DNA of 57,847 bases, the filler included, from Stramenopiles sp. TOSAG23-6 (taxonomy: Eukaryota): NCBI GenBank assembly GCA_900128565.1. It is 3 parts of 3 records of this genome, joined end to end, with 100 filler letters (N's around TTAATTAATTAA, not from the genome) between each part and the next. Parts side by side here need not be neighbours in the genome. Positions count along the whole stretch, not along the records: positions 19,368 to 38,584 come from LT636053.1; 2 more parts are not named here. One strand, 5' to 3'. The stretch's first letter is position 1; every line of letters begins with the position of its first letter. The notes beneath the pieces were generated by a model, which worked only from the letters and a program-made list of their open reading frames with translations, had not been told where the DNA came from and made no database searches. The position numbers and the translations under genes are program-made. Shown in pieces: positions 13,401 through 40,142 of the stretch.

Positions 13401-16400
13401 TAGTAATATTCTTAACAATGCCAACATCTAAAAATGTATCAGTCGCATAGATATGATCACCAACTGCAAATTGAGCTGTCGCATCAATTTGATTCCCGTA
13501 CTCAATCTCAATTGTATTTTTATCGGGTTCTTCAAATTTATAAAATGATATTAAACTTTCTTTTTTAATCTCTATCCTAGTTCCAAGAGTATTGATATAT
13601 AGTTCGTCGTCCTTGTACAATTGGAAAGCAGGGGGGGATTCTAGAATTAATTCCGTAGGTTTACACTGATCGACGACTCCTATTAGATCACCATTATATT
13701 TATATACAACATCTCCTTTTACATATTGCAATATGCTACCACCCGTCAACGACACTACATTCGAATCAGTAGTACTAGCAGAAGAAACCTTCATACCCGT
13801 AGCTTTTAAGGCAAAGAAATGCAAAGTGTCAGTTGTAATCATTGATACCGTACCAAGGAATGACATTTCATCAAGATATATTTCATCACCAGGTTGTATT
13901 ATATCATCAATTACCGCATTTCTTATTTGTACAGATATTGCATTGATTTTGATTGACTCTTTAAATTCTATCTCTGCAAATTTCCACAGTTTAGATTTTC
14001 TTACAATTACACCTGTGGGATAAGGAGAAAAATATAACGATGTCCTCGTAGAGTCAACGTTTTCATGGAAACCCCATTCTTCATTTGCGTCATCAGAGGA
14101 ATTTTGATGCATTGGTGTTTTTTTATTTCGAACATATGACAAAATACCGATTTCTTTTGAATTATAAAAAACAGAGTCTCCTGCTGCAAATCGGTAACGT
14201 GCATCTAGTATCTCATTAGTGAATATTGCATTAGCGCCTGCTGAGTGTTGTTTTCTTAGAAAAACTCCAGATGAGGTTATTTCATTACCTTGAAGATCTG
14301 TTTTTCGTGTAAATGATAAATTACCCAATTGACTCTGAAGGTTAGTACTACAATGTCTCCAAGCTATCTTCGTATGAGAAATATCACTAATAGTAATTTT
14401 CCAATTATCAGCGCTTTCACAGATACCATTAACTTCATAATTACTTGTATCGTGACCATCACCAGGTGCTGGAGAGCATTCAAGATCTAACACATTATCC
14501 GCTGTACCAGTCTTATAGCAGACCCACCCCCCATCTTCTACAGTTGTTAAATCGGGCGCAAAATCTATTTCTCCTAATGAGTAAATGGGAGACAGTATCC
14601 TTTCTACCGATTCATTCTGAAGTGTAGTTGTCACAGCATTATCTGCTTGTGATGTCGTATATATCAAAGTATTGCGTGAACAATGAGCATATATAATATG
14701 TGTCTGATCCCCAATAAAATCTATTACTTTAGCATGCCATATACCTTGTCCGGTGCATATTATACTACCAGCGTCGGCTAATTTCAACATGGCACCATAT
14801 TTGTATGGTTGCTCCATACATTCTTCTTCAGATAAAGTTGAATCTGAGCAAGATCGGCCAGTTCCTGGTAATTTACAACCAATATTATCCATCAAATCTT
14901 CTGAATTAATTGCTAATGACATACATACATATCCGCCTGCAATTCCAGGATTCCACGACACCCACGAACCTGTAGTTACTTTATGAGACTTCAATTGGAT
15001 GGATGGTAGAGTCGTAGGAAAATCTGGTATCTTAAACGTGCTTATAGGACTACGATCATCATCATTTTCCGTGCAATATCGCCATCCAAGGTACATCGAA
15101 TTGTTACTGCTGTGATAAGCGCGCATTGCTGAGGTACACTGAATATTTACATCAGTCTTTAGGGAATCGTCGGTTTTTGCGGTTTTACATAAAATCTTGT
15201 CTTCGGGTTTATCTATTTCACTTGAATATGCTGCGAAACATACATAACCACCTGGTGCCCCACCTGACCAAGTTAACATTCCCTGTTGGTCTATTGGCAC
15301 ATCAATAGGAGATAATGTAAGTATCCTAGATGTGTCACCTGGAAATATTACAAGCGGATTACTTACTTCGCCAGCGTCAACACCGTCTTCATTTGATTCT
15401 GTGTTAGATTTACAATATCTCCACCGGAAACGATTCAACGATTTACTCTCCCAGGGAATTTCGATGAGTTTTTCTGCTGTAGAGCACTTTATACTCGTGT
15501 CAATTGTATCTTGATTGTTAATATTTTCATCACATGATTTCATTTTATTGTTATCACAGTAGTAACCTGGGGGGCATTTCAGTGGCGTACCCGTACCCGG
15601 TGGGCAAATGAAGGTTTCACCATCAGCATCATATACAACACCCCTTTCGGCTTTATTGTACGTACAACTTAAAGGGTTTATAGAGCCTGTTGGACAATAA
15701 TGACCCTCTGGGCATTCTATACAAGATGTTTGCAAAATTTTAGAATTATATTTACCCGCGGGACATTGTTCACACACATCCATACCAAAACATAGGTGTT
15801 TCCATGAACAACCCTGAATGTTTTCACAGGATGTCACACCTACTTGTGTAGAACAACTTTCACCATTTAAACCTTCACCAATACAATGCCCTTCTACCCA
15901 ATGTTGTCCGTCGTTTTCACAAGTAATTTTAGTATCATGATTTGGATCTGAACAACCACGCTGCATGTACCAAGTACAATTCGCTGAGATACAATCTTCC
16001 ATAGAACTTTTATCACATTCAACTGTAAAGTATCCGGTAGATGCTCTACATCCTCCCCATGTACAAGTGTCACTTGAACATGTATTTGAATTAGTATTCT
16101 CGCTACAAATGTTTCGTTGATAGGTTCCACTTGGACACACCCTAACATTCACTGTAGCACTTTCATCCCCTTTTCCATGACTATTTGTTGCATGTATTAC
16201 AATATCATAATCCTTGGCAACGCTAACATTGATACGTTCTGATTGAATGTTATCTGTATTATTCGACCATGTGCAGAGACGTGGATGATCACTCCAAGCG
16301 CATTCATCATTATTTTCACAAAGTTCCTGGTTAGCTCCTTGGCAAATATTTGAGATAAAAGCATGAGAAACACACGAGCCTTTGCCGTTGTTGTCCTCCC

Positions 16401-19232
16401 AAGAACAAAGCTTGTCTTCAATACAGCTATCCTCTGAAAGATAAGAATTACATTTTGTTTCATATTTTGGATAACACAGTGATGTATTACATATATTTTT
16501 TGGAAATCGCTCGGAGTAATATTCTTGTCCGTCGACAGAGTCACACACAGGGCAACCATTAGATGTTTCTTTTGTCGAACCAATCGGTGATGGTGCACAT
16601 GGGGTACAACATGGTCTCGCTACGCATGAATTTTCTAGAACAATACAGTCATATATAGAACCCTCAGTTTCACACTGTCCTACGCCATACCCTCCACAAA
16701 TACCACTGTTTATCGCGGTACACTTATTTTGACAAAAATTAAGACCACTTGTTGGCGTCTTTTCTATTATTTCGCTAAACCCAGCGACATCGAATCTAGT
16801 TATAGGTGAGCCGCCATCGCTTCCACAACGCCATGTCACGAGTAAATCAGGGGAACTATTTGTTTTTTCTATTGAAACTTCGACTTGTGTCGGTTTTGAT
16901 GGAGTTGAGGCTGTCATGCTAAAGGCAAGGATACGCGTGTATGGTGACCATCCGACTGGGCTGAGTGATCTTCCACGTACCAGAAGTTTGTCTGTAGTGA
17001 TACCATCCCATACTACAATTCCTTCGTCCTTTATTCTTGGTGTCCAGCTCCCGCCTTCTTCCAATAATTCAAATTGTGTTTTTATCACGCTTTTCATATC
17101 TACCTCAACACGCCTAAGCTGGAACAACTTCGTACCCGCTTCAACTACTTTATCAGCAGAAATTTTGTCGATCGGAATATTTCGCGGTCCAGAGCATTTC
17201 CATAACTTTGTTCCCTCTTCAAGAGTCATTTGTATATTTTCTGAAAATATAGAAATTGTCATATTTTCATTGATGACTTCTACATGTGTGATGGTTCCTA
17301 TAAAAGTATTTTTGTTAATACATACACCATCTCCAATAGTAAAGTCATCTATTAAAGTTGGATGTTTAGTTGTAATTGTAAGAATTTCACGATTTCTGAG
17401 GGTATACCCTGTAGCAGTTTCGGTCTTTTCTGAGTGCTCTACTAAAGCAAATTCTTTCATTTTTCGTTTTCCTATTTTTGAGTTGTATGGGAGTATTACT
17501 GCATTAGGTTCTTCCAATGTAATCACACCATTCCTAGTTTTGGTGTTGATGTTGGTGTTGATGTTAGATTTTGCCACAACACCAACATAAATTCCGACAG
17601 AATCTCCAGATGTCGAAAGTAAAACTACATCCCCAGGGTAAAAAAAATCATCTATTTTTGACGACTTCTTTGTATTTTCGTAGTGAATTATTGTTGTTGT
17701 GTGCTCTTTTGGTATCTCTATTTTTACGATGAATTTATTAAAGTTAATTTTTTTTTGTTGAATAAATAACGCGGAACCATCTGTAAGTATTCGTGTAGTA
17801 TTTTCACCTTGGATAGAAATATATTTATCTCCATCGGAATATGAATTAGCGATAACTAATCCTGTATCTTTGTAAGTTGCCATATAGTTACCCTTATTGG
17901 AATTATCTCCTTTCCAGCCTGGCATTATTGGTATTGGACGAGAAAGGACAGCGAGGTTTTGCGCTGTCGCTATATGCTGTATTTTTTGGCCTAATGCAGT
18001 TAAAGGATTTCCGCCATTTTCATTTACATCACGCCATATGGGAACATCCACTTCTGTGCTCAATATCTTATGCGATGTTTTTGGTTTACACGGGTATGTA
18101 TCGGAGTCTGTTTTTTCATAAACACAAAATCTAACGTCACATTCAGATCCGGTTACGGAGCTATAACATTTATTTGTACAAGTTCCTACAGTAGTTGCAT
18201 TGTCCGTGTAAAAAACATTAATATCAATACCCCATTCTAAGTTATCATTCCATATCCTAGAACTATTGGCATTCATCTCGCATGATTCGCGAGTATCCAA
18301 TTCATGAAGTTTTCTAAGATGAATAATATTTGAATTTTCATCATATTTTACTTCACTGCAATGTGGAGCTTTACAGCTAGATTCATCTCGTGAATACCCA
18401 TCGCTGCACTTCAAAATTTTTAGTTCACATTTATACCCCTTGTCAATCTTGTCTTGCCAAGTGCAGCCGCCTTCCTCTTTACACGTTTTTTCGTCTAATC
18501 CAGCACAATTTTCTTCGCCTATGCAAGAATCACACATAGCTTTGTCAAATTTTTCAACATTTACCAACACTGAGGTGTCATTTTCATGTGTTGTCTTCTC
18601 AACCTCTGCGTAATATTGTGTGTTTTTTGAAAGTGAAAGTTTCTCTCCCTTAATATACCTTCTTCCTGCTAGTCCAAAAGTACTCTCTATTGGCCACATT
18701 TGTAATAACTTATCCCATTTACATACTTCATGGTTAACTGTACATGTATCCTCGTTTACATGCATTTTACAATTATCATACATTTTTTTCCATGGTCGCT
18801 GGATTTTATAAGTCGTTTCCCCCTGGATTGGTACTACAACACCTTCAAATGATTCGATAGTTGCTTTCCGTGTCCGGGCATTATAAAATGTGATACGTGT
18901 AATTAGTCCTGCCCCCTTTCCTCCTGTGAGTACGAGAGTGTGATTTACCAGTTCATTATTATTTCTTGGCATAGAATCCCAAGTGGCACCAGGAAATCCA
19001 TTCGCAAATGCAACAGTAGAGCAGTGTAACTCTACGGGAGTTGAAACATCATGGAATGCAGCATTTGTACTTTCTACACCACGTGCAACATTCATCTCAT
19101 CATCACCTATTTCTGTTAGTTCCATAATTTCATCATCCACTAAAAAAAGAACCTTTTCGCCAATGTCTTGAAACGAATTCAAAAGATCTGCAATTGTATT
19201 AAATGGGGTGTTAGTCACCAAATTTTCTTGTA
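4436..19232 (-). CDS. Giant (>4800 aa, 5'-truncated) cysteine-rich surface protein. It has GCC2/GCC3-like CPxGxYC repeats, beta-rich repeats, an FN3-like unit, a C-terminal multipass membrane domain and a cytoplasmic EF-hand. One intron at 5635-5735
   Basis: The 4507-aa and 420-aa ORFs join by a GT-AG intron (IMYP-G-LTVRCFQIF). Many CPxGxYC repeats; hydrophobic helices (KLLISYLQVISQ, LYVIGIP, WWYEFVEMVRK); loop DENNDGFLSFFE. Confidence 0.85.
5635..5735 (-). other. GT-AG intron with weak family resemblance
   Basis: GTAAGT...ATGAAAATTTT...CTAAC...TACAG; removal gives MYP-G-LTV. Confidence 0.9.
8240..8345 (-). repeat. 18-bp coding tandem repeat (SEDTKT/SDKTKT, about 6 copies)
   Basis: GAAGTTTTAGTCTTGTC recurs. 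Confidence 0.9.
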
Positions 19233-19267
19233 GAAGAAGGTATATTAAGGGAGAGAAACTTTCACTT

Positions 19268-19367
19268 NNNNNNNNNNNNNNNNNNNNNNNNNNNNNNNNN
19301 NNNNNNNNNNNTTAATTAATTAANNNNNNNNNNNNNNNNNNNNNNNNNNNNNNNNNNNNNNNNNNNN
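19268..19367. other. Artificial contig linker (N-run, TTAATTAATTAA, N-run)
   Basis: Six-frame stop linker between N-runs. Confidence 0.95.
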
Positions 19368-19422
19368 GTACAAAATTTCGTACGAAAAAAAAATAAATTT
19401 GAAATTCATAATGAAAACGTAC
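19368..19422 (-). other. Family intron, 5' part running into the gap
   Basis: CAA|GTACGTTTTCATTATGAATTTC...CGTACGAAATTTTGTAC. Confidence 0.8.
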
Positions 19423-22400
19423 TTGAACTTGCAACACTTCTAAAGGTACAATAGAGGTATGTGTATGTAATGCTTGAATACTTGATTTCTGATATTTTTT
19501 TTTATCATTTTGATTTTTTGTTATAAATCGTGAAAATTCTACATGTAATTTTAGGAAAATATTTCAAACATTTGATTTTTTAGTTAAATACAAAATTTTC
19601 ATAGTAAAAAAAAATTTAAAATTCATTTTTTTGTAAACGTACATGATGTTTTTCGTCCCATCTAGAAGAATAACCATCAAAACGTACAACTACAATTCGA
19701 GTTTTTGGATTTTTTAAATGTTCATTTAAATGTTCATTTAAATGTTCATTTAAATGTTCAGTTTTATTTTGAGTGTGATTTTTAGAATTTTCGAAAGTAA
19801 CATTATTTTGGTTGGTCGATACATCATCATCATTTGTTCCAGTAGTTGACTGGTGTAAAGGTTTATCAACATTTTCATCAACATTTTCATCAACATTTTC
19901 ATCAACATTTTCATCAGCTGTTTTTTTCATATCCAACATTTTACTTTCTCTCTCTAAAGATTCCTCAATAGTTTCTATTGATATAATTGTAGCTTGTAGC
20001 CAAACACCTTCTTGATCAAATACATCAACTCTACCATTCACTACAAATAAATTATCATTTTTTTTGATACTATTCGAATCCATAATATCGGGTATATCAT
20101 TTTTTTCCTCACTTGTTGTACCCAAGGAATTTGGATTTTTTGGATTTTGTTGAGTATTCATTGATGTGAAGCTATCATCATTTGTAGTCGTCTTGTCATT
20201 ATCGACATCTTTTTTTTTACTAAACCAATCACCAATTGAAAAAGAACTTTTTTCGGACTTTTTTTTTTCCAAATTTAATTTTTCTTTCAATACAAAAAAA
20301 TCTTTTGGATATTCGAAAGCAACAATGGCATGATTTCGTCGACGTGGAAGGACTTGAACCGATTGATGATCACTGTAAACATTTGCTAACAAACCAGCTC
20401 TTAATTCATACAACTCGAGCCGTGAATGAGTTACACCACCTGATAGTAAAAATATATATATCACACAAAATAAAAATTATTAGCTATGAAATTTTCTATG
20501 AGAAAAACAAAACTGAAATTCATAATGGAAAAAGTACACTGTTCTGAAAGTTCTCTCTTCAAATCTCCTACTGCGCTCAATTGAGGCAACAAAATTGTAT
20601 ACTTTGTTGCCGTCCTACGTAATTTCATATCATCATTTTTATTGTTTTTTCTTGGCGAACTGAAATAAACGATAACAGAAATCGAAATTTGTTTCACGGG
20701 AAGTTGAACTGATACAAAATGCAGTGGTTCAAATCTCAAAGATCTATATCCACATTCTCCACAAGTTACGCTTCCTCGTTCCATTCCAAAAAAGAGATCC
20801 GCTATAGCAGATCTGTTTCTTTTTTTATATTCTATCCAAGCTTCTTCAGCTAAAACTCTATCTGGTTTTGTTATAATTTCAGAATCGCTTTCTTTTCTTT
20901 CAATGAGCTTAGTATCAATTTTATTTTTATCAATGTTTTTATCAATATTATTAGTAGTATTACTATCAATATCATCATCTTTATCATTACTATCACTATT
21001 CTCAGTTCTATCACTGGGTAATTCTTCAACTTGTCTTGCTAACTCAATGCCACATTCATCTTTAACTTTGTTTGTGTCATTTTTGGTACCATTTAATACT
21101 ACAACATCGTCCTTAGTTTCACAATTCGATTCTTTTTGTGGTTTCTTCGGTTTCACATTTTCTCTTACTCGTTGAAGATCTTCATGACAAGACATTAAAC
21201 ATGTATTTTGGAAAAATATTTGAGAAGAAAATTCGTTAGGTATAAAATTTCGTACGAAAAATAAATTCGAANTTGNAAAAAAAANAAAACATACNTGACA
21301 ACGCAACTTCTTGAGCATCCTGTTGCTCACATCCTTCAAATTGAGTATGACATGGATTGTAAAAAGATACGTTACACAAGCGATTGTTTGTTTTGTTAGT
21401 TTGAACATACACACACAGAAAAAAAAAAAAGGTAAACAATTTATGAAAACGAAAACATATATGAACTTAAAACAGCTTTGAAATCATTTGGATATATAAA
21501 ACGTCTTCCATTCGAAGAAGGTTTTTTCCATAACATTTTCAAAAGGTTTGCAAAAGAACAAACAAAACGGCCACCCGATCCAAATTTGTTAGTTACATTA
21601 ATTTGTGTTTCCCATGTATTGAGAAAAAATATTTTTTTTTGTAAAATTTGTTAGGTACGAAATTTCGTATGAAAACCAAAAAAAAAAATTAAATTAGAAA
21701 TTCATATCAAACGTACACTGATCCGAAATGAGAAAATTTCTCAGTAATGGTGCATGACTCAAACATTGCAGAACAGAATTCATATAACAAGTATTACCTA
21801 TATTAGCCAATCCTACAGCACCACGACGATCAGCTTTTCCTTTTCCAGAATGTATTTTGGAAAAATATTTCAAAAAAAAACCGTTATGTACAAAATTACG
21901 TACGAAAAAAAATCGAATTTGAAAAAAAATAAAAACATACATCAAACATTCTACCAAGACCAAGACCATATGATGTATTGTGAAAAAATATGTAATTTGA
22001 TGTTTAATTGTTAGGTACGAAATTTACTACAACAACAAAAAAAATGAAATTCATAATTAAAATGTACATGAATAAAGACCACGAGAGGTATTCCATCGAT
22101 TAATTTTTTGTTGTTGTTTGCGCCGTGCAATTGTTTTTTCCGTGGTGTGAGTTCCTAGAGGCGCAAGCTTGTCGCTATTTGATAAAAACATTTCATCCCA
22201 CTTACTCGACCAACCACAAAAATTAATTCGAAGTCTTTGAATTGGTATAGAATTATTATTATTTTCATCATTTGAAAGATTATTTCCATTATTAGTACTA
22301 TCATTACTTGATTCAACATTTTCTATTTGACCATGTACAGTATTTTCAGTTGTGATACTAACGACCATAGATTCATACCAATTGCCTTCTTTATCACACG

Positions 22401-24660
22401 CATCCAAGCGATCATTTACCTCAAAATTACGAAATCTTTTGTTTTTTTCCTGTGCTACATCAGCAGGCCATCGAAATGTCAATTTTTCTTCTTCTTTTAT
22501 CTTAGATTTTTTTGGGTTGGGGATATCTGTAGGGATATCTGTAGAGGCAATGGAAAGAGCTTGTTCCACCATAAAAGCATCACCAGAATTAACAATGAAA
22601 TTTGGTTCAATATTAATCTCAGTATCATCATTTGTAGTATTATCGAAATGCTCGCAATCCAAAGAATCTAAAGAATTGTTCATACGCTCGGGAGAAACAA
22701 GAACCCATTCTCCTCCAGCAGATTTGTGCCATAGTCGTAAAGGCATTTCTTTCGTTTTTTTAGAAGAATTGTTTTTCTTTTTTTTCTTTTTCTTTTTCTT
22801 TTTTTTCTTCTTCTTACCAAATATTGTCCATTTTTTATCTCCCTTATCTTCACAATTATCGAAATTATCGAAATTATTCAAAATATCACTATTTGAATCT
22901 TTCGCTACAAGCACATGTATTCTTTGATATGCAACATCAAGTAATTGTTGAAAAGTGTTTTTTTTTGATAAACTAATGCTTACAGTGGGGCTCTTAGTGT
23001 CAGAATAGCCGCTTGTTTTATTCATCCAAACACATTTAAATACCAAAGGATATAGCTCAACTGCTCCTCGACAACAAGAACTTGGCATATCAATCTCGTG
23101 AGGCATAGGTACTCCCACATTCATGTATTGTGAAAAAATAATTTTTTTTTTTTTGGAAATTTATAAAAAAAATCGTTAGGTACAAAATTTCATATGAAAA
23201 AAAAATCAAAATTCATGTTGAAACACGTACAAACGGTCTTCTACTACAAATCTTCCAAAAATAGATCCAAGTTTTGAACCATACCATTCATACATTATTA
23301 TCCATAATTTCTCTGGGAATAAAACAAAATCACTAAATTCAGCAAGACCCGGTCGTAAAGTACCAACAAATGCACCCCTAATATCGCTATTATCAATGGC
23401 AGCAGGTTTGTCACCATATGAATGCGATAAACTTCGATTCATATCTAATCTTTGATAACCTGAAGACGTCGATGTCTTGATTGATTCATTGAAATGAACT
23501 TCATGAACAACTTCACTTTTATTGTTTCTATCTTCAGTTCCACAATCAGTAGAAGTATTACGTATTAAACTACTTTCTATAATTGATGTTTCATTAGGGT
23601 TAGGGTTACGTATTAAACTACTTTCTATAATTATTGATGTTTCATTATTTTGTGTCGAGGGAATTTCACTACTTTTTTCTTCAAAAGTACAACGACCCGC
23701 TGCAAACCAATCAACATATTCCGTCCATTCATCCCACCATGTTTTAGATACAACAAACCATGTCTGACCACGGATAGCTCGTCTATTTTGAGAGTCATTT
23801 TCAGTCAACAATCTAAACACTATATCACGTTCATCTGAAGCTGAATGAAGAGGAGAAAATGCTTTTAATAATCTAGACGCGTCAAGATTTTGCCCCTCTA
23901 TTGCCCATTTACGAAAATCCTCATATTCTATTTGTTTAGACACTACTGGCAATATATTCAATGATGAATTTTCCGAATTCTCCAAAGATTCTTCATTTTC
24001 TTTTGTAGTCAAATTAATAGGTTTGTGTTGTTCAAAAAGAACGCGTTCTTGTCTACGAATCCAACAAGACGCACCATCTGTATGAGGACCTACTGAATTG
24101 TTTGCCTTTTTTGTAGTATTATCTCGAGGAATAGAAACACCAAGACTAGCACCAGGCGAAACAACAGCTGTCTCAAGCAAAGTTCGTATTTCCACGTTTG
24201 AAAGCACGCCGTCGTTGTTCAGATCAAATAGATCAAAAACAAGTCGAGCTTTTTCTTCTGGTGAAGCTATGCAACATATACTAATGGCAACGCAAAACTC
24301 GCGAAAGTCTAAAACTCCATTCTCGTCGTGGTCAAATAAACGGAAAGCATTTGAAATGATGGAATCGGGAAAACCAGAATGTTGAAACTCCTCACGGAAA
24401 ATACCTGAAAAGTCATCTTCAGTCAATTTTGCTGTTACACCAAACTCAGATGATGTACATGATTCATCTGAATTCATATTTGAAGCAACAGCCATACGAA
24501 ATTTGCGGAGAAGTCGCTTCACGTCACTGTGCTTCCAGTTGTCCAGAAGCGAATTAGTATAATCGAGATATAGTAAGTCGTCAGTGCTTAAAATCTTTCC
24601 ATCTTTTTCGCGTCTCCACAATAAAGTGCCTTTAGCACGGACACTGTTACATATCCCCAT
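19423..24660 (-). CDS. USP32-like ubiquitin-specific protease (EF-hands, DUSP, UBL, catalytic domain with Tudor/Agenet-like inserts), 3'-truncated by the gap. Exons 24660-23231, 23122-22068, 21972-21941, 21849-21717, 21613-21461, 21351-21295, 21200-20538, 20439-19643, 19542-19423
   Basis: EF loops DHDENGVLDFRE and DLNNDGVLSNVE; DUSP motifs WFVVSKTWW...PAAIDN...WYG; Cys box GLANIGNTCYMNSVLQCL; QQDAQE; CHEDLQRV; SAIADLFFG..CGECG. Confidence 0.9.
19543..19642 (-). other. Family intron, GT-AT
   Basis: Removal gives WDEKHH|VEFS; CAT|GTA is repeated at both junctions. Confidence 0.8.
20440..20537 (-). other. Family intron, GT-AG
   Basis: Removal gives LSEQ-C-GVTH; family internal motifs present. 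Confidence 0.85.
21201..21294 (-). other. Family intron, GT-AT
   Basis: Links QQDAQEVALS to LMSCHEDL. Confidence 0.85.
21352..21460 (-). other. Family intron, AT-AT (diverged)
   Basis: Removal gives FKAVLSS-C-HTQFEG. Confidence 0.8.
21614..21716 (-). other. Family intron, GT-AT
   Basis: Removal gives SDQ-W-ETQIN. Confidence 0.85.
21850..21940 (-). other. Family intron, GT-AT
   Basis: Removal gives RMFD|SGKG, leading into the Cys box. Confidence 0.8.
21973..22067 (-). other. Family intron, GT-AT
   Basis: Removal gives LYS-S-YGLG. Confidence 0.8.
23123..23230 (-). other. Family intron, GT-AT
   Basis: Removal gives VEDR-L-NVG; the upstream exon ends TT. Confidence 0.85.
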
Positions 24661-24895
24661 CGTGAAAATATATGAATGGTGTAGTAGAAATAATTAGATC
24701 AGCAGTTCTGAAGATAATTTTGCAATCTCAAAATTTAATCTATATAAGAATAAGATTCTTCTGAAATCTTTGAACGTGGCACGGAAACGCACGAAATATT
24801 GATGGATTGTCTAAATAAATCGAAATTCAAAAAAGAAGTCAAAAGAAGTAGACTTTTCCATCTGATAAAGATTTCAAAAAGTATATCCAAGATGA

Positions 24896-24955
24896 TATTG
24901 TTTGGGTGATCTGTCGATATCATTATTATTGTTTGGGTGATCTGACGATATCATT
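24896..24955. repeat. 31-bp-period tandem duplication in the divergent USP/kinase intergenic region
   Basis: TATTGTTTGGGTGATCTG(T/A)CGATATCATT twice. Confidence 0.85.
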
Positions 24956-24973
24956 GTAGATAGAATTATTGCG

Positions 24974-26166
24974 ATGGGTGTGTGTGCTTCAAAGACGTTC
25001 CCAATTGAATTATGCAAGGAATACGAAGTCGTTGAGGCTGTCACTTTAACTCTTGCTTTAACTCATCCTTTAACTTCTGTACATGGCGAATTTTATGCGG
25101 CCACACGAATAATGGATGAGACTCCAGTGGCAATAAATAAATACGTATTAAAAGATGAAAAAAACGCACAGTACAAGCAAGAAATGGAAGATATGCGCCG
25201 TGAACTTGGACTCTTTGCAAAGATGAAGCATCCTAATATTCTTGAATACATTGGCCAGTTTGAAACTAAGAAGGAACTCTTTCTTGTGACTGAGCAAATT
25301 AAAGGAGGAGAGTTGTGGCGCACATGTCGAGAAAGGATAATTTTCAAGGAACCACATGCACGACACGTGATTAAGAGTTTGCTTTCTGCTATAGATTATC
25401 TTCATTCGCAAGGAATCGTCCATCGAGATGTAAGACTGGAGACTTTGCTGTTTAAAGAAAAGGTATCGACAGATATAGATGACCCAATCAACTCAACAGT
25501 AAAACTGCATGGGTTTTCGCTTGCGGTGACTGTTGGCGATGATGAATATGGTGGTATTTCAAAAGCTGGTGGGATGCGTTTAGTTCCTCCTGAAGTGGCT
25601 GGTCATATGTTAAAAGAAAGGAACCCAGATCATTGTGACCTTTATGAAGTATCTGGAAACGACAAAACTCCTCTCAACTATGGGAAACCTGCTGATATCT
25701 ATTTGATAGGCTGTGTTACGTATGAATTAATCTGTGGCTATCAATTATTTGATTTTAAAAAATCTGAGATGGCTGTCGTCGATCTGTTGAAGGAAATATC
25801 TAAGGTATGTTTTATTTTTTTTTCAACTTCTATTTTTTTTTCGTACGAAATTTTGTACCTAACGTTTTTTTTTAAATATTTTTTCACAATACATGGTTAC
25901 CTTGAATTCCATTCTCCATATTGGGATGATATATCCGATAGCGCAAAGGAATTCGTCAAGTTTTGCATATATGTTTTATTTTTTTTCAATTTCGAGGTTT
26001 TTTTTTGTTTTTTTGGTTTTTTATAAAAATTTTGTAATTAACAAATTTTACAAAAAAAAATATTTGTTCACAATTCATGGATGTGAACCCAAAAACGAGA
26101 CCCAAAGTGAAGCAATTGATGGAGCATGCATGGATTAAGAAATCAACTAATTCCAAAATGTTCTAA
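24974..26166 (+). CDS. CAMK-like protein kinase, probably a pseudokinase. Exons 24974-25804, 25895-25968, 26079-26166
   Basis: HPNILE, GGEL, IVHRDVRLE, YGKPADIY; spliced C-terminus ISKGYLEFHSPYWDDISDSAKEFVKFCMDVNPKTRPKVKQLMEHAWI. Confidence 0.88.
25805..25894 (+). other. Family intron, GT-AT
   Basis: AAG|GTATGT...ACAT|GGT gives ISK|GYLEF. Confidence 0.9.
25969..26078 (+). other. Family intron, AT-AT
   Basis: Removal gives KFC-M-DVNPKTR. Confidence 0.85.
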
Positions 26167-26230
26167 TAATTAATTATACATTTGTTTATTTCATTTTTTA
26201 GCAAAATTATTATTATAATAATTAGAAATA

Positions 26231-28501
26231 TCAGCAATTTCTGGTACCTGTAGAAGCAAGTTCAATCGTCTGCAACATTGAACGGCCAATGGACATATAT
26301 TGTGGAAAAATATTTCAAAAAAAAAAAAAGAAAATTTGTTAGGTACAAAATTTCCTATGAAAATATAAATTCGATTTTTTTGTAAAAAAAAAATAAAACA
26401 TACTCTATAACTGGTGGAGTGACCGCATTGCCGATTGCATGGTAGAAACGCCACCACTCATTACCTCCGGCACTTCCATTGGCATCGGCAATGGCTCGTG
26501 ACGTCTTAAAAGAATCAGGAAAGCCTTGAAGACGAGCACATATATTGAAAAAAATATTTAAAAAAAAACCTTAGGTACGGAATTTTCTATATAAAAAAAA
26601 TATTAAAAAAAAAAAACTTAGGTACGGAATTTTCTATATAAAAAAATTGAAATTCATCATGAAAACATACATTCCCTTGGCGTTAAGAATCTCGGATTGT
26701 GTGGCGGGTGTCTTGGGACTATTTGACTACGACCAAGGAGATCCTGGTGATAGGATGAAATGATAGCTTGTGTTTGTCGATCTGGCCACATGTACTGTGA
26801 AAAAATATTTTTTTAAATAATCGTTAGGTACACATTTTCGTACGAAAAAAAACAATTCGATAAAAATCATGATGAAAACGTACACAACTCGCTTTGGCAT
26901 TCTTTGCTTAAAAGAACGAGAGCGTTGTACTTTCCCCCATTGCTTATCAGTGAGCGTGATTGCTTTCAGTAATAACGGTTGATAAGATGTAAGGTCTGCC
27001 TCATTTTCGAGTATGTCTGCGGCTCTTAGTGAACACATTTGGTTGAGTTCATCAGGCCATGAGAATGTATTTTGGAAAAATATTTCAAAAAAAAAAACTT
27101 AAAATTTGTTAGGTACAAAATTTCGTATGAAAACCAAAAAAAAAAAAAATCGAAATTGAAATTGAAAAAAAATAAAACATACATGGAGTTTTAACATCAT
27201 TTCTAAACCCTACAAGATATAGTCTATTTCTACGCTGTGGAGTTTTAGAAGCTGAATTAATTGTATTCCAGTACACATGTATAATGAAAAATATGTTTTT
27301 CTTTTTGATTAAAAAAAATTGTTAGGTGCAAAATTTTCAATGAAAAAAATATTAGGGTTAGGGTTTAATAATGATGAAAATGTACATAATAACCAGCATT
27401 CTTCAGTGATAATACAATTTCCCGCATAGCCCCACCAACTGTCGCCATTGCCACTGAATCAGAAGAATTGCCTTTCACTGGCAAACCAATAGTTGTTGTA
27501 GCATTTTCATGTAAATTAGAGTCCTTATTTTTTTTTGAATTTGAATCTATTTCTTTTGAATTTGTACCAGTTGAACAATGAAGTAACCCTGGGACATTCT
27601 CTAGCAGAAAACATTTCGGCATATGATCATTCAAAATTCGAGTGATTTCAAGAAAAAGTGAACCCTTACCCTTGGTATCTTTGAACCCTGGTTGATCTCC
27701 AAGCGTGCTAAACGGCTGACAGGGAAAACCAGCGACGAGCATGTCATGTTCCGGAATATCCACTGATCTCACTTTAGTAATGTCACCTGCCAGGATTGAT
27801 TTTTTTTTTGAAGATGGATCCGAAAAATTTAAAGAATAAATTGCTTTCGCACGATTATCAATTTCAGAAGCGAATACGCAAGTTCCACCAAGGGATTCCA
27901 AGCCAAGTCGAAAACCACCAAGACCTGCAAAAAGCTCTATGAAACGAAATTGTTTTTTTTTTTGAGTCACTATATTTACTGGAACCGGCGATTTCTCTTT
28001 TTTTCCTTCATTCGAACCCCATACAAGCTCCTGACTGGTAGGAATTCGTAGTTGTGGGCGCCAAGAGGCTCTTCCTTCGTCTAACAGCACACGCAACTCA
28101 GCTGGAAGGCAATCGGCGACCTCCCTTGAAACCTCCCTTGAATGTACAACGTTGTTATTTATGTATGCAGTAAGAGCGCTTGTTCCAGGCTCAATAACAG
28201 GAACAACGCGACTCTCTTTTAGAGAGGAGGTCAAAAGAGGCGCAATTATATCAGGGTTACCAAATCGTCCTTGGAGAGTTTCTACCCACAACACCTTTGT
28301 TCGTCGAGGAGGAGGTTCTCTATAGTTTTCGGGATACCAATTCGCAGCCTTAAGCATTTCCACAACGCGTTGTGTGAGTTTGGTCTCAATCATTAATGCT
28401 CCTGCGTTTGCTCCGCATCGAGAGACACCATTGAATTCAAAGTTCATTCCAGGTTGTGCCGCCAATTTGTTGACACTATTCCGCTTCCGCTTCCGACCCA
28501 T
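26231..28501 (-). CDS. DNA (cytosine-5) methyltransferase, bacterial Dcm-like / DNMT6-like. Exons 28501-27386, 27276-27183, 27064-26884, 26789-26671, 26539-26404, 26294-26231
   Basis: Core C5-MTase motifs recovered after splicing: FIELFAGLGG, GFPCQPFS, LLENVPG, PQRRNRLYLVGFR, RFLTPRECARLQGFP, AIGNAVTPPV. Confidence 0.92.
26295..26403 (-). other. Family intron, GT-AT
   Basis: Removal gives GNAVTPPVI-E-SIG. Confidence 0.85.
26540..26670 (-). other. Family intron, GT-AT, with an internal ~47-bp duplication
   Basis: Removal gives LTPRE-C-ARLQGFP. Confidence 0.9.
26790..26883 (-). other. Family intron, GT-AT
   Basis: Removal gives KRV-V-WPDR; the internal CAG is out of frame. Confidence 0.85.
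27065..27182 (-). other. Family intron, GT-AT
   Basis: Removal gives KTP-F-SWP. Confidence 0.85.
27277..27385 (-). other. Family intron, GT-AT
   Basis: Removal gives NAGYY|VYWNTIN. Confidence 0.9.
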
Positions 28502-28760
28502 TTGAATACTCTGGCTTATTAGTATGTAGTATTATTTTTCGTAGAAGAAAACAAACAGACTTGAGATTCAATTTTTGAGACTGACTTCCAAAGTAATAAA
28601 AACACGAAAAGTCACCGATTTCGATTTGCTTTTCAAAATGCATGGAAATTCTTAATTTAATTTCCCAAATCGGGCGTTTCTTATAAAAAAACAAAACAAA
28701 AAAACAACACATATTTATATCATATATCATATCAAAGTATTTATATAATGTCATCAAAGT

Positions 28761-31700
28761 CTATTTTATCTTTTTCCCAAGAGTTGAAATCACTTCAATT
28801 TCTGATTTTTTAGTTCCCACCAAAGCAATTTCATTATTGATGTCATTAATTTTTTTTTCTAGGTATTTCGATTTTGAACTTTTTTTCTCCATATGAACCG
28901 CTAATAATTCAATAAATAACTTTTGGGTTTTTTTCAATGCTTTATATTGACTCTGAAGTTTTACTATTTGTGCTGAATGATTGGATTTTGTTTCAAGTTT
29001 ATTCATGTTATATTTGAGGTGAGGAGCTGAATGATTTTGTGGGTTTCGATTTACATGATTGTGCCATTCTCTTAAAGGTTTCGTCAAAGCTGAATGATTT
29101 TGTAAAAGCATTGGCAATATATTTTTAGCTTTCCTTTTTAGCGGTGTACTTTTCGATTTTCTGAGACTTTTAGTTGTCCACGCATTTTTTTTCTTTTGAT
29201 TATTTGTTTTTTTCTTTTTATTATTAGATTTGGGTTTTACCTTTTTTATTGTAAAAGTAGATGAGCCATTAAATGGAAATGCTTCCATCAAACGACTCCT
29301 TGCCCGCCTCTTTTTTGTATATTTCAATGCTTTTGGAATATTTCTTCCTGCCTTGTATACTTTCCGTACATGTTTTACTCCTCTTTTTCCTATATCTTTA
29401 GTTATCTTGGCTCGATTAATCGTTTTTTTCAAAAGTTTTTCTGAATGTTGATTGAAAGGTTTCTTCAAAGATGTATCTGCTGGTTGTTTTTCCGTTTCTG
29501 AAAACTTTACAACTTTGCTTGAAGCCAGTGTAGTATGATCGCATATTTTCATATTGGCTACATTGTTCACTGATCCTGATTTTTGTGGGTGAAAGATTCT
29601 TGTATTCTTCATCAATCTTTCCGTATTTCTTTGAATTAAGTATTCGCGTTTGACTTTATTATGATCATTAAACACTTTATAATTTTCTGGTAGTACATCT
29701 AGTATTTCGAATAATCGAATAAATAAGTCACCAAATTGTCGATAAGAAATATTTCTTGATAAATTCAATGAAGCTTCTTCGTCGCGAAAACTATATTTTT
29801 GCTTTCGAAATTCCCTCTGGGATTTCTTCATATCGAATTGTGCATTTTGATGCCTCTTTCGCAATCGTGAAAGTAGAGAAGAAAAATCTTTTCCAGTGCA
29901 TTGGACTACAACTGAAAATCTCTCAGAAATGTGGCATAACTCAATTTTGGTTGGCATTGCCATATTAAATGAAGAAGGTTTTAATCGCGGTAGAATTCTT
30001 TTAAAATCTTCTTCTGAGACTATCCCACCTCTTACTCTGTCATATGGTATAAATAAAGCTCTGATAATACTTTTATACTTTTTGCCGAAAATTCGCTGTC
30101 TCTCTTTCAAAACAAAGGCCAGTTTTATTAATCCAATAAATGCTGGTTTTGTGAGACCATATTTATCCCTCAAGAGTTTGACTCGCCTTTCTTTTCGCAA
30201 TAGTTCTATTTGTTTTGAAAATAATCTTTTATTGTGGTGCTTCTTTTCCTCCCATAAAGATGCTTTTTCATGTAGATATTGTTTTACGACTGATAGATCG
30301 CATGTTGTTTGAATACATGTTAAAAGTGCTCGCCAGTGTACCTCATTACAATTAAAAACATCCCCAAATTTTATTAAACATCGAATCTCCGATCGTGATA
30401 TAAAAAGATTACACTTTTGCATAATATTTTGAAATGCTAGAACAAACTTTATCGGTGATATCACACCAATGTTATTTTCATCGTGAGTTTCAAATTCACT
30501 GAAAAATGTGGCTAGACTTACATCTTGATTGTTTACATTGTTGTATGAATCATCTGTATCCTTTTGAATATTATCTTCTGTTGAGATGCGTAGACTCTGA
30601 AAATAAGTATTTAGTGTATTTACGCCAGAAGAAAGAGACACACCTACTTTTTGGACCCGGGCTTTTGGAATAGTAGACTCCAATTTGTTTAACAAGTTAT
30701 ATAATTCTTTCTCTCTGTTTATCCTAAGTCGTATTTTAAAGCTAGGTACTTTCCGACGATGTTTTCTTTTTAATTCCTTGCCAACTTCCTGTGCTGATCG
30801 AATACCTACAACTTCATCTCCTTCCCATTCGAAATGTTGTTTCCATTCAACATGTCTCCCAGTTTTTTCCAGCCAATGAAATATTACCCTTTGAATAGTT
30901 CTAGCTGTTCTATCCAACTTTCGTTGGCGGCGTCTTCTTGACACTCTCTGTATAAAAATTGCGGCTTTTGTTTTGATCCTTGCCTGTCTCACTGCCTGCC
31001 ATTGCCTTTCTAGCATGACTTTATTTCGTTGTGCACTTACAATTGCACAAGATACTTTTACTCTATACGAACATTGAATGGTTAAAGCAGCATTTTGCCT
31101 TTTACGTTCATCGATAATTCTACGAACCTCGTGTTGAATTTTACACGCCGCGACATAGCGAATCCTTCTGAGTTCTCTCATTTTGTCCACAATTTTTTTA
31201 TTTCTGTACATACGCCATGCTGATTGAATTTTAACGAGCGCACTAGAAATATTTCGTTTTATAAAAGAATTTGGCAAAAGACCTGCCACATTAGGCACAA
31301 TCAGAAATTTCTCAAGCTCAGTATCATTATCTGCTAATGTCAATGTATACTTTGGCATTGCATATCCAACTTTTACCATATTTTTCTTGATATGTTTCGT
31401 AGTATTATAAAGACTTCTTGATTGTTCAGATACATTGCTATGAACTTCGTGTATGTCGTCTTTTTCAAAAACTTCCCTCATCTGTGAGAACCATTTATCA
31501 TCATATCTAAAGGCGCTGCGAAACTCCATTCCATCTATGTTACATAAACATGGAAGCCGATCTATTTTGCTTTTACGTCTACTGCATTTAATCCATGAAT
31601 ATTCCACTAAATGAAGATCATGAAGTCGAGAAAAAAGACATCCGTCCATTTCCACAGATGATTCAGTTTTATTTTCATCCTTATTTAAAAACATTTCACC

Positions 31701-34700
31701 TTTACTCTTTTTTACCACCCAAGTACCAACTCGTGGTGGGGCATAGATTTCCTGATTATGTTTTATACATTGTTTAATTAAATCTCTTAAATACACATTA
31801 TTATTCTCTGTATTTACTAGATAAATAATGCCGTCGGGCCCGATTTCTTCTTGAAATTTTACAAGTTTCCCTTCTATTGATATGTTTATACTTCCTAAAC
31901 AAACTTCGCGTTTTTCGATTCCCCAATTACAAAGATCGCGCCCACCAAAAGTAGCTGTATTTTCATACATATTTGATTCAGCTATTTCCTTTACTATGTT
32001 TTCTTGTGCTGATACTTCTTCTGATTCCACTAGTGTCCCTGGAAATGACGGCAATGAAAGTGATGTAGATGATGATGAATGTATTTTTGAAGAAATAGTT
32101 TTATATCTACATGCATTTTCAAGTTCTATGAGATCAAGATCAGATGGACAAGAAATGTTGCGATAGTTCTCGGCTGCATTTGAATGAAAATACGAAGCGT
32201 TCTCAAAATCACATTGTAAAGCATAATGAAATGCTGCCTCTGTACAATGATAACCAGCAGACGGGTAGTTCCCGATGTCTTTGTGATACTTCGCTGCAGC
32301 AATATGATGTTTGATTATTGGTCTGCGGATAAAAAGTACACGTTTTTTGAAGTCCCCTAACCGAGTAGAAATTGGAGGAGATGGTGGCATTGACCAAATA
32401 GTTTTTTTTTTTAAAGGAGAAACCAATAAGGCATTCGCGTCTTCCACACTTGAATTTTCTAAATCCAATCCATTAATGGATAATAACCTCATACCAATAC
32501 ATACACCCCCTCTAATAAACTGTTTCTTTGAATCATTCCAATCACTCGCGAAACCTGCAATTTGCGACCCGCTGCTTTCATGACTTACCGGTCGAAGAAT
32601 TATCCCCGCAGAACTACCCGAAGCACCATTTAAATTTATCGTAACATCATCTTTTTCTATTTCTAGAAATTTTGTATCTTCGATTTTTTCTCCTTTATCG
32701 AGAAACTCGCATAACTGCTGTACACCATTTTTCAAAGTTATATTTCTTCTTTCAATTATTTTAATTTTGTGTGTCACATCCTTCAAATTATTTGTATGTA
32801 AGATGTAGTTTGCTTTTGCCTTTTGAAATAATGCGTCGGCGGCGACTGCAGACCTACGTTGCTCTGGAGTTGCGGTTATTCCATCCGCAATATCTGCCTT
32901 TTTCAAAGCTCGTATTTCTTTTCTGTCTAACTCCTTCTTTAGAGGTTTAATCATACTTTGCAATTTCCTCATGCTTTTTCTATTCATTTCGTACAACTCC
33001 ATTGAATTCTCCAAAGCCTCTACAGCTAATCGATTCTCTGATGTGTTTCTTTCGCGCCTTGATCTAAGCTGTTTTACAAAATTTGATAATTTGTCTATTT
33101 GATGGTATTTATTACCGTAAAATTGGGTTGATAGTAATATTTGTGATATTTTATAGTCATTTGTCCTAAATGCTACATGTAGAGCATTGTTCCCAAGTCT
33201 ATTTTGTATGTCAAGTTTTGCCCCGGTATCCAAAAGTATCATTGCTGCTTGAAATCTATGTTTCGCAATTGCGCGTAATAAACAAGAAGACCCTCGAATG
33301 TCTATTGAATTAGGATCTTCACCGCGCTGCAATAATTTTAGTATCTGAAAATAGTTACCTTGATCAATTGCTTTATGTAATGGATTTCGGGGTTTAATTT
33401 CAATGCCTATAATTTTAGCATATTCTACAAAATCTCTTGCAATATGCCCACGCACTTGCGCCTGTATCATAACAACATACCTTTTTGTCTGTTCTAATCT
33501 AATTTTAAATTCACGTCGACATATCCATCCTCTGAAAGATTTCTGTACAACAATTGATGCGTGTTTTAACTTTTGAAATTTAGTACGATGAATAAATCTT
33601 CTTATTTGAGCTTGTAGTATACACATTGCTGCACGTTTACATGCCATCATAGCAATCACATGGGAGCGACGAAAACATGCCTGGACTTTAGTGATTAGCG
33701 CTAAACGTCGCCGTATCATCTTACGAACCTTTGATTGAGTACTGATAACAAATGTCTCAAGAATACGAAGGTAAAGACGTAATATTACTCCTCTAATAAT
33801 AGCTTGAAATTGAATAATTCCTCGTAAAAATGATAAATAAAGTAATCTTGCGCGCCTACGTCGATAACAACTTTGAACCAATGTTGCCGCAGATATTTTC
33901 TTCTTTAATAATGTACGCGATTTTTGTTTCTTGCTGATGCGTTTTATCATAACAACAGTTGCACTTTTGCCTTCAATTTCTTGTCTTGCTCTCATTCTTC
34001 TTTCACGAGCTTTTCTTCGTGCAATGTGTTTTCGATATTCAATTTGAATTTTGCGTGCTGAAGCATGTTGAGTTTTCAAACGACGTTTCTTTGCAATGCG
34101 TTTTACCATCACTACAGTAGCACTTTTACCTTCTATTTGTTTCCGCGCCTTTTTTCGTCGTACCCATTTTCGATAAACTCTCTGAATTATTCTTACTGCA
34201 TTATGTTGACACTTTAGTTGCATACGGAGAGAATATCCTCTCCAATTACACTGCAATGTAATTGCCGCTCTTGTACGAAGTAACTGTAATGCTTCTTCTC
34301 TCATTTGCTTTACTTTTTTTCTTGCCACATTTCCTCGATAGTATGCTTGTACTATAATTATTTTGCAAATCTTCTTAGCACGTAAACGTTTTGCGATGTG
34401 TCTTCGAATATGTACCTGGATCAAAGATGCAGCCACAAGTAACCCTTTCAAGCGCCACTGTTTTTGAATACGAGCTGCTGCATTTGCTTCCTCTTTTCTT
34501 CTCTTTTTTCTAGCTTCACATGCTTTTTTTTCTGCTATCCGGGCATCTTTTTGCGTCCTTTCTACAGCAGCATCAGCTTCTTTATCCCTTTTTCTTTGTG
34601 TATGCGATCGTTGACATTTTTTTAATCTTAGAGCAGCATAATTTTCATTGCGGCGTTGTTTACGTACATGTATACCTCGACGACGGGCTTGACATGTTGT

Positions 34701-36029: not shown

Positions 36030-36243
36030 AAGGAAGTATCTTTTAATCTATGTTTGACATTACTTAAAACTGCTTGGAATAGTATTAGGCACAAACAAAA
36101 GAAAGTTCCTCCGTACAGGAATTTGAAACTGTCACAGAGAAATCCGTTTTTTTCTGAATTTTTCTTGAAAAAATATGCGCAAACGCTGCGCAAACCTGCC
36201 CAATTTAAGAATTTATTTTTTATTATATATTGAATATTTATCA

Positions 36244-38584: not shown

Positions 38585-38684
38585 NNNNNNNNNNNNNNNN
38601 NNNNNNNNNNNNNNNNNNNNNNNNNNNNTTAATTAATTAANNNNNNNNNNNNNNNNNNNNNNNNNNNNNNNNNNNNNNNNNNNN
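38585..38684. other. Artificial contig linker (N-run, TTAATTAATTAA, N-run)
   Basis: Same linker as at 19268. Confidence 0.95.
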
Positions 38685-40022: not shown

Positions 40023-40142
40023 TTCTGCAAGAAAAACTCATTTATTTTAAACATACCGTTGAACTCAATTTGTGTAAAATGTAATATTAAAATCGCATAT
40101 AAGCTATTCCCACAAGGAACTCTTCATTTATATATTCGACAA

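Follow-up and report, generated by a model that had tools for sequence, protein, structure and literature searches.

Few rules of eukaryotic gene expression are as conserved as GT...AG, and the large-scale departures from it that we know of, in Fritillaria, Amoebophrya and the euglenids, are few and messy; the non-canonical introns of Fritillaria were reportedly treated by Henriet et al. in 2019. U12-type introns have G or A at position +1 followed by TAT (consensus 5' site RTATCCTT), tolerate non-AG 3' ends and carry a conserved branch box that ends in TAAC and lies about 10–25 nt from the 3' end, and starts of the GTATGT or GTACGT type together with a CTAAC-core box are strong yeast-like U2 signals. 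Here we describe a family of short introns, most of which read GT...AT, in 57,847 nucleotides of DNA from Stramenopiles sp. TOSAG23-6 (GenBank assembly GCA_900128565.1; hereafter the window). These introns are probably one short mobile family (an introner) that spread in an AT-rich stramenopile related to the marine stramenopile (MAST) group MAST-3 and that would be cut as RT...AT by a U2-type spliceosome not requiring AG. MAST-3 are abundant, mostly uncultured ocean protists.

Introns of Fritillaria borealis and F. pellucida end most often in AT (34% and 44%, respectively), and the available text of the same study gives a YAY triplet that both directly precedes the 5' site and closes the intron, 5' ends that are mostly AG (AG/AC 18%, AG/AT 16%, GT/AG 5%) and U2AF subunits that are duplicated and diverged (Soo et al. 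2026, PMC13326754). These introns have retained a T-rich tract, and a transposon origin (miniature inverted-repeat transposable element, MITE) has been proposed for them (review PMC11282704). The introners of Amoebophrya are described as having non GT-AG borders without a common dinucleotide, direct repeats of 3–5 nt that overlap the borders, inverted repeats of 8–20 nt that form hairpins and a GC content above 50%, in a host in which the U1 small nuclear RNA (snRNA) was not found (Farhat et al. 2021, PMC7789003). In Micromonas pusilla and Aureococcus anophagefferens, a non-autonomous element and its target-site duplication (TSD) together give the splice sites, the intron being the element plus one repeat copy, and thousands of similar introns lie sense-biased in genes (PMC11282704). 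The same review portrays euglenid nonconventional introns as lacking a polypyrimidine tract, pairing end to end, carrying TSD-like repeats and being of likely MITE origin (PMC11282704). According to a 2025 introner survey the usual 5' ends are GT, GC, GA and AT and the usual 3' ends AG and AC; families with mainly other ends were retained there only given transcript or RNA-seq junction support, and large surveys of this kind take annotated introns as their start (PMC12130899).

Census and anatomy of the intron family

A profile built with nhmmer from 27 introns gave 38 matches on the whole window, which represent 34 elements (31 complete, three cut by a contig or window end) and three weak antisense matches inside elements. 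This profile search replaced a permissive intron scan, whose 681 candidates were mostly spurious. All 34 elements are in sense to the interrupted gene and none was found outside genes, and the family is spread over at least six genes in 58 kb. Complete copies are 85–131 nt long, with 24 of the 31 lengths not a multiple of three, and 29 of them, aligned end to end, have a mean pairwise identity of 66% (range 44–93%). The nearest relative of a copy usually lies in another gene or contig; the copies at 307–406 and 27065–27182, in unrelated genes on different contigs, are 93% identical. The motif TTTGTACCTAAC with at most two mismatches has 28 matches versus 6.4 expected (maximum in 100 shuffles, 15), and TTCACAATACAT has 33 versus 13.7 expected (maximum in shuffles, 24). 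Scanning metagenome contigs for the element (branch box, gap, tail) yielded one match, on the minus strand of contig L001 (3221 nt) at about 2475–2576 in an unrelated open reading frame (ORF), so that the family occurs outside the present assembly; this copy (..CAT^GTATGT...ACAT^G, where ^ marks an exon border) is AT-flanked and its register is therefore uninformative. The same scan of genome contigs and of viral contigs gave no match, and neither did an Rfam search of the whole window, in which there is thus no snRNA.

Cuts are numbered relative to the RT...AT reading of the initial annotation, which is register 0; register -1 gives TG...CA and -2 an AT-AC-like intron. In register 0 the 31 complete copies start with GT (28) or AT (three) and end in AT (28), AG, GT or AC (one each). 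The initial annotation read the family as RT...AT; all copies start with RT, and three have another 3' end, namely 20440–20537 (AG), 48006–48103 (GT) and 49310–49436 (AC). Intron position -2 is A in 30 of 31 copies and position -1 is T in 29 (C and G once each), and the last three bases are CAT in 23, TAT in five and TAC in one (29 of 31 YAY). The last two exon bases are AT in 21 copies, GT in five and TT, AG, GA, TA and AN in one each; the 21 of 31 with AT compare with a 9.6% background in long ORFs of the window (binomial P = 7e-15). YAT ends the upstream exon in 14 of 31 (CAT eight, TAT six), exon position -3 is C in eight of the 21 AT-flanked copies, and the downstream exon starts with G in 21 of 31. 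Across the borders a 2-nt direct repeat is intact in 22 copies (AT and AT in 21, GT and GT in one) and mismatched in nine; no empty site was seen in the window.

The copies share one plan: exon ...(Y)AT, then G/A-TAYGTTT, a variable A/T-rich stretch, TTTTTCRTAYGAAAWTTTYGTACCTAAC, 20–40 nt of A/T and GAAATATTTTTYCAMAATACAT before the next exon, with a conserved tail ...TTTTTYCAMAATACAT preceded by a T-rich tract. GTAYGT-type starts are found in 23 of 31 (GTATGT 12, GTACGT seven, GTACAT four), next to five others and the three AT starts. A branch box of the CTAAC type, TACCTAAC, was located in 30 of 31 at 32–53 nt from the intron end, and the 31st copy has CTAAG twice in its place. An AG lies between branch box and intron end in eight of the 31 introns.

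The three A-start introns (1122–1213, 21352–21460 and 25969–26078) always follow CAT and have a pyrimidine at intron position -4 (TCAT, CCAT and TCAT), where 26 of the 28 G-start introns have A; they fall in different subfamilies by their 5' parts. Positions +1 and -4 may covary in them. One subfamily (GTAYRTTTTCATCAT...AACCCTAA...CCCTAA; 763–877 and 27277–27385) contains telomere-like CCCTAA/TTAGGG repeats, which are also present at L001:2290–2330 and once in the coding exon of the USP gene at 23596–23610.

Removal of the elements and register of the cut

Once the elements are removed, conserved proteins reappear. After splicing, the DMGDH-like product (864 aa) aligns collinearly with its orthologues over all eight junctions, the spliced C5 DNA methyltransferase regains TPRECARLQGFPD and GNAVTPPV, and the spliced kinase regains ...GYLEFHSPYWDDISDSAKEF, which CaMKs of the PDB carry directly after the exon-1 homology. 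Read-through is not an option, since most lengths (24 of 31, as given above) would shift the frame. A GT-AG reading is impossible for 25805–25894 because this intron contains no AG. In 49156–49254, TTTTTTCAG lies seven bases upstream of the end, and its use breaks the frame and runs into a stop; in 26790–26883, CACAG lies five bases upstream of the end, and its use would break the frame. AG appears not to be required, and good CAG acceptors are seemingly bypassed in these two introns.

That introns of this family slide was recognized in the initial annotation, which noted that most upstream exons end in AT: the AT repeat flanks the element, so that 21 of 31 junctions can move by 1–2 bases without a change in the mRNA. 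At these 21 junctions exon end and intron end are both AT and registers -2 to 0 therefore give the same mRNA, and some keep it over a wider range. The exon ends that the initial annotation proposed as informative, at 23230 (TT), 25805 (AAG), 26403 (GA), 48409 (TA) and 19422 (AA), are all present in the sequence. At 19422 the intron 3' end lies outside the window, as the copy is cut at 19368 by a 100-base contig-join linker. The residues that were said to separate register 0 from register -2 at four of these junctions (R-L-N or R-M-N, S-K-G or S-N-G, I-E-S or I-M-S, H-I-P or Q-F-P, respectively) do follow from the sequence. Exon ends at 21716, 26883 and 49309 (all GT) are informative as well.

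Five RNA runs from two studies, all seawater metatranscriptomes, share words with 19400–28600 (shares 0.05–0.19). Contigs of four seawater RNA runs were placed on 21296–28700, and the RNA results given here are the matches listed. A 339-nt contig of a poly(A) metatranscriptome (X2 record 11, depth 6.3) matches 22843–23121 and then 23230–23289 with no letters between. Its two differences in 279 bases both lie well away from the joint, and the short side matches throughout. When registers -3 to +3 were recomputed at 23230, the 23121 to 23230 joint was reproduced only by -1 (TG..CA), 0 (GT..AT) and +1 (TA..TG), and not by -2 (TT..AC). The product across the joint codes R-L-N, the outcome foreseen for RT...AT, which excludes register -2. 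The match of X2 record 9 begins exactly at 22068 after 42 unplaced letters, which fits splicing of 21973–22067 and is not proof of it. Summed contig depth is 960–7157 in element bins (X1–X3) versus 0–8 in most exon bins; the hundreds to thousands over elements arise because contigs from many copies pile up there. Among the RNA matches listed no contig joins across 25805, 26403, 26883 or 21716, which says nothing either way.

Two junctions in the DMGDH-like gene were tested by conservation. The exon that follows the 48409 junction was searched against 1.84 billion representative proteins and gave full-length orthologues with 44–64% identity. The products there are H-I in register 0, H-F in -1, Q-F in -2 and H-S in +1. 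The aligned column is I, V or L in 12 of 13 orthologues (four each), with F in one distant homologue, and the residue before the junction is R, K or H in nine of the 11 close rows, the remaining ones having T and A. This bears out H-I rather than Q-F, as had been expected. For the intron 49310–49436, registers 0 and +1 give Trp in HDTLWFR and registers -1 and -2 give Arg. The column at 49309 is Trp in nine of 11 MAFFT rows (L and R in the others), and HDxxW[FLM] is present in eight of 11 BLAST alignments. Register 0 alone agrees with the RNA joint and with both conservation tests, which supports the RT...AT register over AT-AC and TG...CA, as the initial annotation had proposed. To the 21 AT-flanked introns the same register would extend by homology of position.

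Three further junctions discriminate less. At 26883, registers -1 to +2 give Val and -2 gives Met, and 40 homologues have A32 V2 I2 R2 L1 S1 and no M. At 26403 the 40 homologues have A31 C5 Q1 S1 T1 N1 and none of E, V or M; in P0355 (...PPVIQSIG...), whose tail is the most similar to that of the methyltransferase, the residue is Q, a faint point in favour of E. Kinase exon 1, searched against 5.8 billion proteins, gave 11 matches with best local identities of 24–35% and no orthologue. In CaMKs of the PDB the residue that precedes the first G in GY(L/Y)EF is E, K or A, so K and N at 25805 are not discriminated.

Proposed mechanism and alternatives

The 5' splice site would be the very first base of the element (G, rarely A, then TAYGT), with one cut before this G or A and the other after the final AT. 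Excision would take the element together with the downstream one of two direct-repeat copies, two bases long and often three (YAT), and the upstream copy would stay exonic. The AT repeat is probably a TSD or the trace of a strong preference for insertion at AT^G. The short element would thereby bring one splice site and the duplicated target supply the other and, the duplicated bases being AT, the acceptor would be AT. Many near-identical copies, their sense-only orientation, their restriction to genes and a direct repeat of 2–3 nt, including the copy with GT at both borders (48006–48103), fit such an introner, which would have spread by transposition; the same pattern would result if copies had spread by reverse splicing into AT^G sites. 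The upstream, exonic repeat copy has drifted in nine of 31 and the downstream copy is kept as AT in 28 of 31, as expected of a splice signal. Removal would most likely be by a U2-type spliceosome, presumably through a lariat, with a 5' site and branch box that look classical and yeast-like. A GTRNGT-like 5' site, a CTRAY box before a pyrimidine tract and T runs preceding the tail are all present, and the YAG 3' end is missing, AG being found in one of 31 copies and ambiguous even there. The 3' rule would have changed from YAG to YAT (rarely AC, AG or GT), and AG would be passable.

Several points weigh against this explanation. About 58 kb, in three joined contigs, is a small share of a genome. 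Direct RNA support consists of a single metatranscriptome contig of low depth (6.3), which comes from another strain and could be carried-over DNA of an intron-less allele, in which case it shows the exon joint all the same; unspliced contigs were also recovered (X1 record 6, 25537–25857; X1 record 7, 26694–26918; X3 record 22, 26620–26871). The tests at 48409 and 49310 rest on conserved residues, not RNA, with one F row and one R row (MAFFT) dissenting. The terminal inverted repeat spans only 4–6 bp, and the direct repeat is absent in nine of 31 copies, of which GA and TA need two substitutions from AT. Neither an empty site nor a presence/absence polymorphism was seen in the contig scans (one metagenome copy, no genome copy and no viral copy), and neither an autonomous element nor a convincing terminal inverted repeat was found within the window. 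Assignment to the U2 type is suggested by motifs.

A non-conventional, structure-guided excision of the sort proposed for Amoebophrya introners and euglenid nonconventional introns, in which paired ends set the cut and its position may vary by copy, is unlikely and fares best among the alternatives. The terminal palindrome (at^GTAT...ATAC AT) includes the exon AT, its positions 1–6 are Watson–Crick paired in 20, 22, 21, 24, 24 and 16 of 27 copies, and the direct repeats of Amoebophrya likewise overlap the borders (PMC7789003). Yet the palindrome measures only 4–6 bp, complementarity ending after 5–6 bp, and RNAalifold on 29 copies found no conserved pair, which speaks for linear signals and against a cut guided by a hairpin. 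A yeast-like 5' site, CTAAC box and T tract moreover stand in spliceosomal order and spacing, and all three testable junctions share one register.

Register -1, which would make these TG...CA introns and leave the last T (or the G of the AG member) exonic, is quite improbable. The RNA joint at 23230 permits this register, which also turns the GT-AG member into TG...CA like the others, but -1 places Phe at 48409, where 12 of 13 orthologues have I, V or L, and Arg in place of Trp at 49309. It also makes the first intron base T, G or A, moves the conserved purine to +2 and gives 5' ends of GG or AG at 25805, 26403 and 48409.

We hold it for still more improbable that the joint reflects DNA instead of splicing, through an intron-less allele or strain or DNA-level elimination, with the element-bearing genes being disrupted copies. 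The only joined record among the matches listed does differ at two bases, DNA can occur in RNA libraries, and some of the contigs are unspliced. Against this, all 34 copies are in sense to genes with none outside, and each tested removal restores a conserved protein in frame although 24 of the 31 lengths are not divisible by three, which is expected of introns under selection and not of disruptive insertions.

Least credible of all are AT-AC introns (register -2) of a U12-like or derived kind, with the upstream AT intronic and the last AT exonic: an AT...AC reading leaves the mRNA unchanged in 21 of 31 copies, and the purine at +1, the non-AG 3' end and a TAAC-ending, TCCTTAAC-like box recall U12-type introns, but this register is excluded by the RNA joint, gives Q-F and not [RKH]-[IVL] at 48409, Arg and not Trp at 49309 and a Met at 26883 that none of 40 homologues has, and produces 5' dinucleotides of TT, AG, GA, TA or GT in nine of 31. 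U12-type membership was rejected on 5' motif, branch spacing and tested register: starts are RTAYGT, positions +5/+6 are GT, AT or similar and never the CC of the U12 5' site (31 of 31), the box lies, in 30 introns, at a distance far beyond the short U12 spacing, and the AT-AC register is excluded at three junctions.

Individual copies and gene setting

The window has a G+C content of 32–41% and carries eukaryotic genes on both strands. Its joins (19268–19367 and 38585–38684) each consist of 44 N, TTAATTAATTAA and 44 N, a six-frame-stop linker, and the contig ends there cut a 4537-codon ORF (5698–19267), the intron at 19422 and the Slu7 gene. The copies are strongly clustered, with eight in 1–3869, 16–17 in 19368–27385, one at 45917–46010 and eight in 47830–50440. 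None lies in the 13.6-kb ORF at 5698–19267, in a 7.3-kb ORF at 28764–36047, or in the isocitrate dehydrogenase (IDH), IF2-like, PNKP, ABC-ATPase and coiled-coil genes.

On the plus strand of the first contig, the window start cuts a family intron of which the 3' part remains (1–53, ending ...AAAATACAT; nhmmer model positions 52–103, E 4e-6). The profile located seven complete copies downstream, of which 307–406, 763–877 (with CCCTAA-like repeats inside) and 986–1087 have exon ..AT and GTATGT...ACAT. The others are 523–637 (exon ..AT, GTATAT...ACAT; branch box GTACTAAC), 1122–1213 (exon ..CAT, ATATGG...TTCAT), 1734–1837 (exon ..AT, GTAGGT...ACAT) and 3780–3869 (exon ..AT, GTTTGT...ACAT).

The minus strand of the second contig encodes a USP32-like protease with EF hands and a DUSP domain (24693 down to 19423; Pfam). 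In this region the profile located the 5' part at 19368–19422 (exon AA, GTACGT), which lost its 3' part at the linker, and complete copies at 19543–19642 (exon ..CAT, GTACGT...TTACAT; USP-like gene), 21201–21294 (exon ..AN, GTATGT...ACAT), 21352–21460 (exon ..CAT, ATATGT...TCCAT; divergent interior, branch box AAACTAAC), 21850–21940 (exon ..AT, GTATGT...ACAT; after a 32-nt micro-exon) and 21973–22067 (exon ..CAT, GTACAT...ACAT). The copy at 20440–20537 (exon ..GT, GTACTT...TATCAG) may end in AG, as initially annotated, and an in-frame end three bases upstream, after ACTAT, would equally give GT...AT. At 21614–21716 (exon ..GT, GTACGT...ACAT) both registers code Q-W, and the junction is informative at the RNA level only. 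The intron with direct RNA support from X2 record 11 is 23123–23230 (exon ..TT, GTACGT...ACAT).

The neighbouring plus-strand gene for a CaMK-like kinase (24974–26166; Pfam) contains the AG-free intron 25805–25894 (exon ..AAG, GTATGT...ACAT), after which the kinase domain continues in frame, and the A-start intron 25969–26078 (exon ..CAT, ATATGT...TTCAT; profile). The C5 DNA methyltransferase gene (minus strand, 28501 down to about 26200; Pfam) is interrupted at 26295–26403 (exon ..GA, GTATGT...ATATAT), 26540–26670 (exon ..AT, GTATGT...ATATAT; profile), 26790–26883 (exon ..GT, GTACGT...CACAGTACAT), 27065–27182 (exon ..CAT, GTATGT...ACAT) and 27277–27385 (exon ..AT, GTACAT...ACAT; CCCTAA repeats inside). 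It is the removal of 26540–26670 that restores TPRECARLQGFPD; in this copy about 47 nt, the branch-box block among them, are duplicated in tandem, and both boxes are CTAAG and not CTAAC.

The third contig has a minus-strand copy in a SET/MYND gene (45917–46010; exon ..AT, GTACGT...ACAT; profile) and eight plus-strand copies in the gene for the DMGDH/sarcosine-dehydrogenase-like enzyme (47131–50700; Pfam). Two of these eight were located by the profile, 47830–47949 (exon ..AT, GTAAGT...CAATAT) and 49310–49436 (exon ..GT, GTACAT...AATTTAC). Exon end and intron end are both GT at 48006–48103 (GTACGT...ATACGT), and 48409–48493 (exon ..TA, GTACGT...GACAT) has the sole junction without a neighbouring register of the same mRNA. 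A T tract and CAG precede the end of 49156–49254 (exon ..AT, GTATGT...TTTTTTCAGAGTATAT) by seven bases. The remaining three are 49564–49658 (exon ..AT, GTATGT...ATATAT), 50145–50246 (exon ..AT, GTATGT...ACAT) and 50341–50440 (exon ..CAT, GTACAT...GTACAT). The window end cuts a last, minus-strand copy in a papain-like protease gene, of which the profile found the 3' part (57793–57847).

Further products identified with Pfam include an IDH fused to EF hands, Slu7, the SET/MYND protein and others. Slu7, a second-step factor in 3' splice-site choice, is encoded within the same window as the AT-ending introns, at 38685–39565 (minus) and 39702–40030 (plus) (Pfam PF11708, E 5e-54); its N-terminal part (profile positions 1–90, zinc knuckle) falls outside the contig. 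A perfect 35-nt inverted repeat (38685–38719 versus 39702–39736) lies at the start of this third contig. The Slu7 coding sequence (CDS) on the minus strand reaches 38685 and resumes with AYRMLKPRKDDP... on the plus strand at 39702, a fold-back that appears to resemble chimeras as seen in assemblies of amplified single-cell DNA. On the first contig, 5698–19267 (minus) is an uninterrupted ORF of more than 4500 codons that is cut by the contig end and encodes a cysteine-rich repeat protein with many CPxGxYC-type repeats and a C-terminal multi-pass region. The best labelled relative of the IDH protein, with 81% identity, is a EukProt CDS labelled 'GSMAST32...', and the next matches, with at most 70% identity, are unlabelled or from haptophytes, chrysophytes and other protists. 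Going by this one gene and one label, our guess is that the host may be a marine stramenopile near MAST-3.

Comparison with known systems and implications

Fritillaria is the nearest precedent for the present introns. Both have a T-rich tract, the direct repeat and the resulting register problem, seen here as CAT^GT...CAT^, and the YAY end is present here in 29 of 31 copies. The introns of Fritillaria are diverse, mostly start with AG and belong to an animal, whereas here 28 start with GT, three with AT and none with AG, and one family accounts for every intron seen. With Amoebophrya the family shares repeated introns of a marine protist, non GT-AG borders, direct repeats and, weakly here, inverted repeats at the ends; it differs in its uniform borders, 4–6 bp palindrome, lack of predicted structure and classical 5' and branch signals. 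Introners of Micromonas and Aureococcus make GT/GC...AG introns that fit an ordinary spliceosome, whereas here the repeat is AT and so is the 3' site. Non-canonical borders and TSD-like repeats at the junctions are shared with euglenids, from which the family differs by a conserved T tract and branch box and by no extended end pairing being predicted. The present family would add to these known kinds a stramenopile introner with a GT...AT code; introners and 3'-AT introns were already known elsewhere.

Our literature search, which did not cover supplements, turned up no paper connecting non-canonical introns to MAST-3 or to cultured members of this group. In the available text of the MAST single-cell genome paper, introns appear in the methods only and non-canonical introns are not mentioned (Seeleuthner et al. 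2018, PMC5778133), and no occurrence of 'intron' was found in the available text of a 2025 Incisomonas genome paper. Table 1 of the former lists 3289 and 2694 predicted genes in about 19–21 Mb for MAST-3 single-cell assemblies and 4652–8537 genes in 28–33 Mb for MAST-4 (PMC5778133). In such genomes most multi-exon genes will be broken by gene finders built on the GT-AG rule, and the low MAST-3 gene counts may result from this.

An AT-ending family implies a splicing machinery that no longer needs AG at the intron end. We consider the chances even that the 3' rule has shifted genome-wide from YAG to YAU in a MAST-3-like lineage, with nearly every intron derived from one introner and AG unread even behind a good T tract. 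If true, a near-uniform GU...AU intron code would be on record for a protist for the first time, as an independent, cleaner parallel to Fritillaria, and altered recognition of the last intron base by U2AF35, by Slu7 or on the Prp8 side would be predicted. A uniform family with classical 5' and branch signals isolates a single change, that of the last intron base from G to U, and 3' splice-site choice without AG thereby becomes directly testable.

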